Shown piece after piece: positions 2-2,859 of a DNA stretch of 64,000 bases; the stretch's first letter is position 1; every line of letters starts with the position of its first letter. A model generated the notes under the pieces. It was not told the DNA's origin and did not search any database. It was given only the letters and a program-made list of their open reading frames with translations. The DNA is taken from NCBI GenBank assembly GCA_963785985.1, contig CAWAXD010000017.1:31085-95084 (forward strand), in the 5' to 3' direction. The position numbers were made by a program, and so were the translations under genes. This DNA is from an uncultured delta proteobacterium. Lineage in GTDB: Bacteria > Myxococcota_A > UBA9160 > SMWR01.

Positions 2-1486
2 GCGCCTCCCATGCTGTCGGCTCCCATCGACTACGCGGCGCTCTGGAGCCGCGCGCAGACGATCACCGCGCTCGGCCGCCCCAGCCTGAGCTTCTCGGAC
101 GAGGACCTCGCGCTCGCGCTCAGCGTGCACGCGGCCAAGCACGAGTGGAGCGAGCTGCGTTGGATCTGCGACCTCGCCTGGCTGGTCGCGCGCAAGCCGC
201 AGCTCGATTGGAGCGAGGCGCTCCTGCGCGCGCGGCAGCAAGGCTGCGAGCGCATGTTGTTGATCGGACTGGCGCTGACACAGCGACTGCTCGGGCAAGC
301 GCTGCCGCCGCCGGCGGTGCACCGACTCGCAGCGGATCCGGTCGCGCAGCTGCTCGCCGCCGAACAGGAGGCGAAGCTGTTCGATCCGACGTGGCATCCA
401 CCCTCGATCTTCCAGGTCAGCCGCTTCCGGCTGCGCATGCGCGAGCGGCTGCGCGACCGGGCGCTCTGCCTGGTGCGAACGCTGGCGACGCCGCGCCTCG
501 AGCACGTCGACCTGTTGGCGCTTCCCACCCGCCTCGCCTTCCTGTACGCGCCGCTGAAGCTCGTTCACGACTATGCGGTGATGCCCGTGTGGCGCGCCGC
601 GCGCCCCGTCCTCGAACGTGTCAGCATCGCTCGGCTGCGTCCTACGCCCGTCGAGGCAGTCAGGGCCCGCGCCGCATGGTCCGAGCGCAGCGCGAGCTGG
701 GACCGTCTCGTCGACGCCGGCTCCGACGTCGCGCGCCAGCTCGACGGCGCGCTGCTCGAGGCCGGCGATGTCGGCCCGGCGCAGCGCATCCTCGATCTCG
801 CGTCCGGAGTGGGGCCGTCGGCGCTCGCCGCCGCAGAACGCGCGGGCGAGCATGGTTTCGTGATGGCCAGTGACTTCGTTCCCGAAATGCTCGCGGGTGT
901 GCGGCGACGCGCACGCGCTGCGGGTCTCACGAGTCTTCGCTACTTCGCGGCCGACATGAATGCGCTGCCGCTTCGCGATGCCTGCGTCGACCGGGTCCTG
1001 TGTCGCTTTGGAATCATGTTCTGCGCCGATGTCGATCGCGCCCTCGGCGAAGTGCTGCGCGTGCTGCGCGCAGGCGGGCGGGCCGCATGGCTCGTGTGGG
1101 GACCGCTCGAGGACAACACCCTCGCGCACGTCCTCGACGAGGTCACGAACGGGTTCTTCGCCGGCCGCGCGCCGCTCGCCAACCGCGCCCCGTTTCGCTT
1201 CGCCGACACGGGAACTCTCGAGGCGGCGCTGACGCGCGCCGGCTTTCGCGCAATCGCGGCACACGAGGTCCGGCTGGACATGCCGGCGGCTACGAATCGG
1301 GACTTCTGGCGGCCCCAGCTCGAGCTCGCCTGCGGCCCCTTCCTGGAAGCGCTGCCAGCGGCCACGCGCCGGGCCCTCGACGGCGCGCTCGAGGCCGCGT
1401 TCGCCTCCCGGCGAACCGCAGCCGGGCTGCGCCTGCGCGTGCATGCCCGACTCGTGACGGGATGCAAGGCGAGGCCGCCGGCCTAG
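2..1486 (+). CDS. Nucleotidyltransferase-family (NTP_transf_5-like) C-terminal region fused to a UbiE-like class I SAM methyltransferase; probably 5'-truncated by the window edge
   Basis: N-terminal EDLALALSVHAAKHEWSELRWICDL motif typical of NTP_transf_5 proteins. C-terminal RILDLASGVG, SDFVPEML and DRVLCRFGIMF methyltransferase motifs. Frame is open back to the window start. Confidence 0.75.
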   Translation, partial: APPMLSAPIDYAALWSRAQTITALGRPSLSFSDEDLALALSVHAAKHEWSELRWICDLAWLVARKPQLDWSEALLRARQQGCERMLLIGLALTQRLLGQALPPPAVHRLAADPVAQLLAAEQEAKLFDPTWHPPSIFQVSRFRLRMRERLRDRALCLVRTLATPRLEHVDLLALPTRLAFLYAPLKLVHDYAVMPVWRAARPVLERVSIARLRPTPVEAVRARAAWSERSASWDRLVDAGSDVARQLDGALLEAGDVGPAQRILDLASGVGPSALAAAERAGEHGFVMASDFVPEMLAGVRRRARAAGLTSLRYFAADMNALPLRDACVDRVLCRFGIMFCADVDRALGEVLRVLRAGGRAAWLVWGPLEDNTLAHVLDEVTNGFFAGRAPLANRAPFRFADTGTLEAALTRAGFRAIAAHEVRLDMPAATNRDFWRPQLELACGPFLEALPAATRRALDGALEAAFASRRTAAGLRLRVHARLVTGCKARPPA

Positions 1487-2859
1487 TCGCAGAGGCTCCG
1501 GATACACGCGACCGCCTCGCCTGCCGAGGCCATTGAAAGGGCATAGCAGTCGACACCGCGAATCCACTGCACGAGACGGCGCACCTTCTCCCGATCCAGG
1601 AGCTCCGGCAGGACGACGCACTCCTGCAGGAGATCCTTCAGCGCCGTCGCCCGATCGAGCGGCTCGAGCGCCGTCGGACGCTCGGGCGTGTAGCGCGGAA
1701 ACACCAGCCAGCCGATCGCGCGGCTCTTGGTCGGCACGGGCCCGCCGTCGCGAGCGAAGGGGTCCAGGTAACGCACCCATTGCTCGTCCTGGCGCCGATG
1801 CACCGGAAGATCGCGGAGCTCGGGGAACCACGGCGCCAGCACGTCGACGGCGCCGGGCTTCACCGTCAGCGCGAGCGGCACCGGCCGGACAGCGAGCGTC
1901 TCGCTCTCGAGCAACGCCACCTCGTCCGAGAAGTACTCGCAGCCGGCGGCGACCAGGGCGCCGGTGAGCGTCGTCTTGCCGCTTCCCGGAGGCGCGGGAA
2001 GCACGACACAGCGCTCCCCGAGCCCGACGACTCCGGCGTGGATCTCCATCCAGTAGGAGGCCCGCTCGAGCGCGACCTGGCGCAGCAGGGCCTTGATCAC
2101 GGGTGCCAGCTGCTCGAGCGCGCGGCCCTCGGCGACCCGCGCGCCGTCGCGATGGATGTCGTGATGCGCAGCGCGCTCCTCGATGACGGTGCACACTTCG
2201 TCGCGCGCCGGCTCCAGGGTCTCGAGATGAGCGAGCGGGGGGTGCACGGCGCACTCCGCAGCCGGCGTGCCGTAGTGGATGGCGAGCGTCGTCCCGAGCA
2301 TCCGGTAGCGCCGGACGCTGGAGGCGTGCGGGGTCTGGCACGCCGCCTCGGCCGCGCGCGGGCGGCGCGCGAGGCTGCGCCGCCGTCGCGCGGAACGCTT
2401 CCCCGTCACGGTGCTTGCCTGGAGCGCGAGCTGCTCGGGATCGATCGAGAGCAAGGCGTCCACGTCCTCTCCGCCCAGACCGAGAGCCCGCGCAGTTCCC
2501 CTCGCATCGCGCGCGAAGTCGCGGCGGAGCCCCTCGTTGCACAGCAGACGACCCAAGGCGGTGTTCAGGTGGATGCGCGGAGGCGCAAGATCGCCGGCAT
2601 TCGCGAGCCAGCCGAGCCCCCGCCAGCGATGCAGTAGCTCGGCGACGTGGCGCTCAGCTTCGGCCGGCGCCATCTCGAAGGCGCTGGCGTATGCGGATAC
2701 GATCTGCCCCGCCGGGTAGCCTTCCTCGACGGCACACCACACGAAGGTGGCGGGTGCATTGAAGACGTGCAGCTCCTGGTGCGCCTCGGAGAAGAAGACA
2801 CCGGACTGCTCGAGGACGAAGAGACAGGCGCCATCGGCGACCTGCGGCGACGCGCTCAC
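1483..2859 (-). CDS. Fusion of PqqD/RRE domain + helical DUF692-partner-like domain + HPr-kinase-like P-loop kinase (458 aa)
   Basis: GTG at 2859 overlaps the DUF692 stop (GTGA). RRE: ELHVFNAPATFVWC...AERHVAELLHRWRGLGWL. Middle domain: ALGRLLCNEGLRRDFARD...LGL...EQLALQA...KR. Kinase: IHAGVV...PAPPGSGKTTL...YFSDE. Confidence 0.8.
   Translation of the reverse strand: MSASPQVADGACLFVLEQSGVFFSEAHQELHVFNAPATFVWCAVEEGYPAGQIVSAYASAFEMAPAEAERHVAELLHRWRGLGWLANAGDLAPPRIHLNTALGRLLCNEGLRRDFARDARGTARALGLGGEDVDALLSIDPEQLALQASTVTGKRSARRRRSLARRPRAAEAACQTPHASSVRRYRMLGTTLAIHYGTPAAECAVHPPLAHLETLEPARDEVCTVIEERAAHHDIHRDGARVAEGRALEQLAPVIKALLRQVALERASYWMEIHAGVVGLGERCVVLPAPPGSGKTTLTGALVAAGCEYFSDEVALLESETLAVRPVPLALTVKPGAVDVLAPWFPELRDLPVHRRQDEQWVRYLDPFARDGGPVPTKSRAIGWLVFPRYTPERPTALEPLDRATALKDLLQECVVLPELLDREKVRRLVQWIRGVDCYALSMASAGEAVACIRSLCD

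Follow-up and report, generated by a model that had tools for sequence, protein, structure and literature searches.

Why should a protein that joins a peptide-binding domain to a kinase carry, between the two, a helical segment that looks like part of another protein? The question is raised by a stretch of 64,000 nucleotides (the window) from an uncultured delta proteobacterium (contig CAWAXD010000017.1), in which the gene for such a three-part fusion follows a gene for an MNIO (an oxidative enzyme dependent on multinuclear non-heme iron, DUF692). We consider it probable that the segment, here called the module, is a docking domain grafted from an SCO6045-like or TglI-like MNIO partner protein, and that the fusion serves as the partner of the neighboring MNIO. 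The precursor, MNIO and fusion genes all lie on the minus strand, and the stop codon TGA of the MNIO gene and the start codon GTG of the fusion gene overlap as GTGA. The features on which the argument turns are the following.

1483..2859, minus strand: three-part fusion, 458 amino acids (aa) plus stop, GTG start (PF05402, TIGR04352)
2599..2856, minus strand: PqqD-type RRE (RiPP recognition element; RiPPs are ribosomally synthesized peptides with post-translational modifications), residues 2-87 (PF05402 above cut-off; fold match to TbiB1)
2380..2577, minus strand: helical module, residues 95-160, proposed MNIO-docking element (homology to the SCO6045-like N-terminal domain)
2332..2379, minus strand: Arg-rich linker of low confidence, residues 161-176 (predicted local distance difference test, pLDDT; alignment)
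1489..2331, minus strand: HprK-related P-loop kinase region, residues 177-457 (TIGR04352; GSGKT at 1972-1986)
2856..3665, minus strand: MNIO (DUF692) enzyme, 269 aa (PF05114)
3717..3923, minus strand: precursor peptide, 68 aa (open reading frame list; AGGAG 6 nt ahead of the ATG at 3923)

An earlier reading of this DNA, made from the sequence alone (the sequence-only reading), had described the fusion as an RRE, a helical segment and a kinase. This layout is real, because a PqqD domain was found upstream of the segment and an HprK-related kinase downstream of it. Residues 28-85 belong to PqqD (PF05402; 29.4 bits, cut-off 23.4), and in a fold comparison residues 1-88 resemble the lasso B1 protein TbiB1 (Z 14.0, root-mean-square deviation (rmsd) 1.1, 84 of 84 residues); NGO1945, through its C-terminal RRE part (Z 7.6), and TglI, through its own RRE part (Z 5.6), resemble the PqqD domain at the generic RRE level. 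Downstream, HprK_rel_A (TIGR04352) matches residues 265-456 at E 2.2e-29 (profile positions 91-280 of 280), at 102.4 bits and thus below its equivalog cut-off of 200. The same profile matches all 28 aligned relatives. The P-loop GSGKT occupies residues 292-296, and G292, G294 and K295 as well as the acidic motif S311-D312-E313 are invariant among the 28 aligned sequences. The model of the N-terminal 180 residues of the fusion reached a pLDDT of 91.4 and a predicted template-modeling score (pTM) of 0.82; past residue 160 the pLDDT drops to 71 and then 49, and the alignment of residues 161-176 is poorly conserved.

The segment itself is more than a linker, since it is conserved, well folded in the model and has significant relatives elsewhere. 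It had been placed at about 2400-2570 before, and the peptide quoted then (ALGRLL...TGKR) indeed maps to 2395-2559, i.e. residues 101-155. In the model it consists of five helices (block pLDDT 95-97). A family search of 5.8 billion protein clusters returned 166 relatives of the fusion, the best 120 of which were used. In an alignment of 28 relatives, those of ~470 aa share the pattern TTALGRLLxNPxLRxxFAxSPxxxARxLxLRxxDxxAFxALDPxxLExQA, and those of ~400 aa show a short gap in its place. The module profile matches 29 of 121 family proteins (the window protein being counted twice), and 86 of the 121 have PqqD and kinase without the module. Where the module is present, PqqD and kinase lie a median of 107 residues apart, vs 28 where it is absent, and the module-less relatives retain the entire kinase region. 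Several of the latter, P0015, P0036, P0042 and P0046 among them, carry the precomputed Pfam accession PF27840.1. All four proteins with a fused N-terminal MNIO domain (P0023, P0024, P0026 and P0029; 736-801 aa) also contain the module. It is hardly credible, then, that the segment is a passive, functionless linker whose likeness to MNIO partners is a relic of gene fusion. The Arg-rich, low-confidence tail (residues 161-176) would suit such a linker, but residues such as A101, L111, R112 and P141 never vary in 23 sequences whose overall identity is only 31-51%, the pLDDT is 95-97 throughout the module, and the module is retained in 10 of 10 MNIO-linked loci and in 4 of 4 triple fusions.

What, then, is the module? 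We searched the 69-aa segment against 1.84 billion proteins with phmmer and obtained 24 matches at E <= 1e-3. Beyond fusions and fragments, these comprise 12 full-length proteins of 171-184 aa, of which the segment forms the N-terminus, and two shorter fragments of the same stand-alone type; the E-values against stand-alone proteins range from 1e-6 to 1e-3. The module is homologous to residues 2-63 of this stand-alone family (hhalign 99.7%, E 3.2e-26, 62 columns, 42% identity), and the stand-alone-family profile in turn matches the window fusion at E 1.8e-18. The Pfam accession PF26136.1, named SCO6045_C in the ESM Atlas, where neighboring clusters are named MbnC-like, is precomputed on 39 of 44 relatives of the stand-alone proteins. 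The resemblance to small SCO6045-like proteins claimed by the sequence-only reading is therefore borne out for this family, with SCO6045 itself lying outside the comparison; that reading had also made its proposal depend on a similarity to DUF692 partners, and the hhalign match provides it. In 400 other genomes of the phylum of the window, the stand-alone-family profile found matches in 6, and in 6 of 6 the stand-alone gene immediately adjoins a PF05114 MNIO gene, just as the sequence-only reading had said of SCO6045-like genes. Other searches were uninformative: phmmer of the 69-aa module against Protein Data Bank (PDB) sequences gave a chance match alone (E 1.2), an ESM Atlas search with residues 92-165 gave no usable match, and a Pfam scan of the stand-alone proteins, with a local copy that lacks PF26136, found no family bar one chance sub-threshold match. 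PF09836 has no match to the window region.

The fold of the stand-alone proteins points in the same direction. One member, modeled at pLDDT 90.2, has the segment's five helices, additional helices and, at the C-terminus, three strands. Among 48,161 solved chains, the four that fit this model best are without exception MNIO partners: TglI (8hci_C; Z 9.2, rmsd 4.2, 168 residues), NGO1945 of the DUF2063 family (3dee_A; Z 9.0, rmsd 3.7, 120 residues) and, in two chains, MbnC (7dz9_C, Z 6.9; 7tcr_C, Z 6.0), the next-ranked chain reaching 5.3. The Foldseek ranks agree (TglI, probability 1.00; NGO1945, probability 0.96). Only the N-terminal part of such a partner is present in the fusion, however. 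SCO6045-like partners (~175 aa) share their N-terminal 60 residues with the window module, and their gene, like the fusion gene, stands beside an MNIO gene; their C-terminal half, composed of helices and three strands, is absent from the fusion, in which the PqqD domain ahead of the module would take the peptide-binding role and a kinase follows. Indeed, a profile of the C-terminal SCO6045_C half had 0 matches in the 121 fusion-family proteins, and 0 in the open reading frames of loci L001-L160 and of the first 12 kb of the window. In MbnC (of MbnBC) and the DUF2063 proteins (NGO1945 and partners of the BufC/HvfC kind), a helical part is likewise combined with an RRE-like part, but in the fusion the domain order is reversed. 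TglI (PDB 8HCI/8HI7) differs in that its identity is 11-13%, its second groove (helices 7-8) has no counterpart in the module, and it has no kinase. Among the loci with stand-alone partners, L169 (5463-6482, plus strand) and L171 (1554-2510, plus strand) have a similar membrane-protein open reading frame (N-terminal ...GPxFLALY...) just upstream of the MNIO. L170 (G363:C26:192500-207500), from a genome of the same class, contains at 7391-8553 (minus strand) an MNIO 51-57% identical to that of the window and split into two frames; beside it lies a 115-aa open reading frame with the module, the rest of the partner being lost, so from its sequence L170 looks like a decaying locus.

A second group of proteins resembles the module, namely Os1348 (PDB 6LK7) and the borosin-binding domain of SonA (PDB 9CGW), small helical domains of similar fold and weak sequence likeness. 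NF038399, the Os1348 family, matches the window fusion at E 2.1e-5 and is also seen in 12 of the 28 relatives that were aligned; Foldseek aligns Os1348 (6lk7) with residues 97-139 of the fusion (probability 0.85-0.96, identity 26-27%), and SonA (9cgw_B) fits the same residues with Z 6.0 and rmsd 1.5 over 43 residues (23% identity). The module could accordingly be a leader-like helical domain of the NHLP clan, of the Os1348/SonA type, that acts in self-association or leader mimicry and does not bind the MNIO; Os1348 was crystallised as a dimer, according to the available part of its description (PMC7726476). We regard this as improbable. The fusion scores 24.5 bits, below the NF038399 cut-off of 40, and the weak match cannot separate the two readings because the stand-alone MNIO partners share it. 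The Os1348 and SonA domains are N-terminal parts of core-bearing precursors, whereas the window module lies within an enzyme. Self-association would also leave the restriction of the module to MNIO-adjacent loci unexplained, and the Os1348 cluster, as far as that part of the description goes, is without an MNIO (PMC7726476). The Os1348 family was also considered as a functional model and dropped, its neighbors being, in the same portion of the source, a GNAT protein, a HEXXH protein and a SagB-type dehydrogenase, none of them an MNIO (PMC7726476). The N-terminal domain of SCO6045-like partners (P0125, residues 5-60) itself bears a weak sequence resemblance to the NHLP-clan leader domains and is similar to them in fold, and the docking module may share ancestry with NHLP-type leader domains.

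That the module has to do with the MNIO is indicated also by where it occurs. We compared 160 loci, half of them from species genomes and half from metagenomes (80 each), scoring every open frame against profiles of the segment, PqqD, kinase and MNIO. The metagenome loci were obtained with an alignment query; a single-protein query confirmed none. PqqD and kinase are fused or adjacent in 71 of the 160 loci, and the remaining 89, which contain a kinase relative only, were set aside. The module is present in 10 of the 71 (L001, L002, L006, L009, L013, L081, L082, L083, L085 and L086), and in all 10 an MNIO stands directly upstream, fused in L001. None of the 61 module-less PqqD-kinase loci has an MNIO in the fetched DNA, which covers at least 1 kb upstream of PqqD in 48 of them. 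A broader MNIO profile (45 sequences) found the same 10 loci and the window, and no others. In a tree of the kinase domain (119 rows), all 28 module-bearing rows fall inside one supported group of 49 rows.

Nor does the MNIO of the window have another partner nearby, as the sequence-only reading had noted. The genome (78.8% complete) encodes two MNIOs. The second, on contig C14 outside the window (G000:C14:918447-919599), is directly followed by a DUF2063 gene in the usual bufferin-type pair, and this is the sole DUF2063 gene of the genome. A search with the SCO6045-like profile matched the fusion only.

A complex was modeled from the MNIO (alignment of 45 rows) and fusion residues 1-175 (23 rows). 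It scored 0.90 in three runs, the highest of three control scores being 0.01; the runs have at least 92% of their contacts in common, with a partner pLDDT of at least 85. The predicted interface names 27 partner residues, 25 of which lie in the module (97-158), the other two being residues 78 and 82, and on the MNIO side the contacts involve residues 61-63, 92-111, 138-144 and 207. The model is of the same character as TglHI, in which, according to the portion of the structural study available (PMC10880893), TglI contacts TglH solely via its helical N-terminal domain, TglH loops insert into TglI grooves formed by helices 1-3 and 7-8, and deletion of TglI helix 1 or helix 3 abolishes binding. 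Docking is described likewise for the PesHI model in the accessible part of that report (bioRxiv 10.64898/2026.03.11.711119). The proposal that oxidation and phosphorylation occur in one complex thereby gains support, short of proof, both from the predicted interface and from natural fusions of MNIO, PqqD, module and kinase (L001, P0023, P0024, P0026 and P0029).

Several points weigh against seeing a grafted docking domain here. The binding of the module to the MNIO is a predicted one, and the score of the complex may reflect what the structure predictor retained from the solved structures of TglHI and MbnBC. Of 157 solved complexes 116 attain the mark of 0.90, and so do 2 of 215 mismatched pairs; these counts apply only roughly, since our own alignments were used. 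Just helices 1-5 of the partner N-terminal domain are present in the module, and in TglI a second groove (helices 7-8) binds the MNIO as well. Foldseek of the stand-alone model gave no match at E <= 0.001, and Z-scores of 6-9 are within the common range, the tool warning of values <8 and, for helical proteins, <~13; the fold evidence carries weight despite these modest scores because all four top rows are partners of one enzyme family. The loci are kin, with at least two duplicate pairs across the collections (L035/L108 and L043/L116, each the same contig), so the split of 10 vs 61 does not amount to 71 independent trials. Finally, the module needs three state changes on the kinase tree, not one; P0015, a 284-aa fragment with its N-terminus missing, accounts for one of the three.

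If not to the MNIO, the module might dock to some other protein of the cluster, such as the product of the gene that converges with the fusion gene:

1..1486, plus strand: NTP_transf_5 nucleotidyltransferase-methyltransferase, convergent with the fusion gene (PF14907)

In full this gene encodes 684 aa and starts 569 nt before the window (open reading frame L175:9517-11571; PF14907, E 1.8e-56). An NTP_transf_5 gene is a steady neighbor, and L001 has an NTP_transf_5-methyltransferase fusion arranged as in the window. Yet such genes occur in many related loci, whether these have an MNIO or not, and accompany module-bearing and module-less fusions alike. Alternatively, the module might extend the N-terminal domain of the kinase itself, whose N-terminal part is not fully mapped because the first 90 TIGR04352 profile positions are unmatched in the fusion. 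Here it counts that the kinase profile built in this analysis starts at residue 177, past the module, and that the kinase region remains whole in relatives with the shorter linker (28 vs 107 residues). We hold both variants to be very unlikely. In L003, L004 and L038 the NTP_transf_5 protein has a second PqqD domain of its own. None of the alternatives accounts for the occurrence of the segment only beside MNIOs.

Returning to the grafted docking domain, one may ask which enzyme joined which. The sequence-only reading had taken the fusion as the strongest evidence that the kinase belongs to the MNIO pathway. The link between the two stands, given the strict co-occurrence of module and MNIO; the direction does not, as it is common for PqqD-kinase cassettes of this leader family to have no MNIO (61 loci), and the MNIO, not the kinase, thus looks like the recruit. 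The module-less forms are the majority (86/121) and are more diverse in the kinase tree than the module-bearing ones, an indication that the PqqD-kinase pathway is the older one and acquired the MNIO later, not the reverse. The closest described counterpart of that pathway is the HPr-rel-A cassette (TIGR04352 kinase and TIGR04353 PqqD), which has the same PqqD-kinase pairing and usually stands beside an NTP_transf_5 gene; in the window the kinase is below the TIGR04352 cut-off, and module and MNIO are additions. HPr-kinase-like kinases also occur in lasso peptide clusters.

The MNIO of the window is itself a clear family member (PF05114, 230.7 bits, E 2.3e-68, cut-off 25). Its best NCBIfam model is the BufB equivalog NF050167, and because it scores 202.3 there against a cut-off of 310 it is an MNIO not to be filed as a bufferin maturase. 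It shares 30-52% identity with the MNIOs of the other fusion loci, and 54-60% with many MNIOs of unknown context. An open frame of 1987 aa upstream of the window (L175:31-5994, plus strand) has enolase-like and PEP-utilising (PPDK_N, mobile domain) matches; it may be either an uncommon combination or, given the GC-rich DNA, a read-through of several genes.

What the two enzymes might act on is suggested by the precursor. It has a leader resembling a twin-arginine translocation (Tat) signal (ARREFLKTVGK, a hydrophobic stretch and ASA) followed by the core QVADTYGGGCGCGAD; read directly, the leader runs RREFLK, then AAATAPAVALLIAA, then ASA. TIGR02811 (formate_TAT) matches it at E 4.6e-5, its 23.7 being below the cut-off of 48.45. 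A leader of the pattern (D/E)xxxARREFLKKxGKxxATxPAVALLLAAxxKxAxA accompanies PqqD-kinase genes whether or not an MNIO is present. Precursors with Tat-like leaders were noted in the window, L001, L002, L006, L007, L009, L010, L018, L081-L085, L090 and others. The short cores in MNIO loci are Gly-Ser/Cys repeats (GGGCGCGAD, GCGCGG, GSGSGSS, GSGCGGVSGGCGG), and several precursor cores are without any Cys. Most cores of MNIO-free loci are unrelated, e.g. QQYNTAPPA and FDPYESESTIN, L030 being the only such locus with a Gly-rich core.

Taken together, these observations are consistent with the following arrangement. A docking domain from a partner protein would have been inserted between the PqqD-type peptide-binding domain and the HprK-related kinase. 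The PqqD domain would hold the conserved Tat-like leader of the 68-aa precursor and the module would clamp loops of the neighboring MNIO (in the model, residues 61-63, 92-111 and 138-144), so that one leader-binding site would serve two enzymes. The kinase would act in cis and the MNIO in trans, or, in some relatives, also in cis. The MNIO would modify the Gly-Ser/Cys core, and the Tat-like leader would then guide export and cleavage. The fusion would in this way replace the usual stand-alone partner, whose C-terminal peptide-binding half is absent here.

More tentatively, and with less confidence than for the docking itself, the locus may represent an undescribed class of RiPP, in which the leader is a working Tat signal held by the PqqD domain, the kinase and the module-recruited MNIO modify the core, and release proceeds via Tat. 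The PqqD domain would then retain the Tat signal inside the cell, much like Tat proofreading chaperones do, and Tat export with signal cleavage would free a modified peptide of ~15 residues.

The concept of an MNIO partner and docking via its N-terminal domain are already known; what is new is a proposed docking domain that has been separated from the peptide-binding half of its parent protein and now sits inside a PqqD-kinase protein. Within one library of papers, a search of main texts for an MNIO with an HPr kinase found no description of such a system, and the term 'HprK-related kinase' was absent among the matches listed. A search for MNIO and twin-arginine found nothing related, and one for RiPP, twin-arginine and precursor peptide no work on a natural Tat-type leader, as judged by titles and abstracts. 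MNIO, kinase and PqqD together led to a biphenomycin study among the matches listed, with no description of the fusion in the parts of these sources that were available.

MNIOs are an active topic in the enzymology of peptide natural products, and their pairing with partners is still being worked out. Our findings suggest that a partner binds its MNIO through a separable domain of ~60 residues, which evolution apparently moved onto a different peptide-binding scaffold that already bore a kinase. The locus thus offers a direct, testable handle on partner docking. Judging from its genes, it also appears to mark an uncharacterised peptide family in which oxidation and probably phosphorylation come together with a nucleotidyltransferase-methyltransferase and a Tat-like leader. 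If the more tentative reading of the locus as a new RiPP class is true, the 60-residue module would be a portable domain that turns any RRE protein into an MNIO partner.

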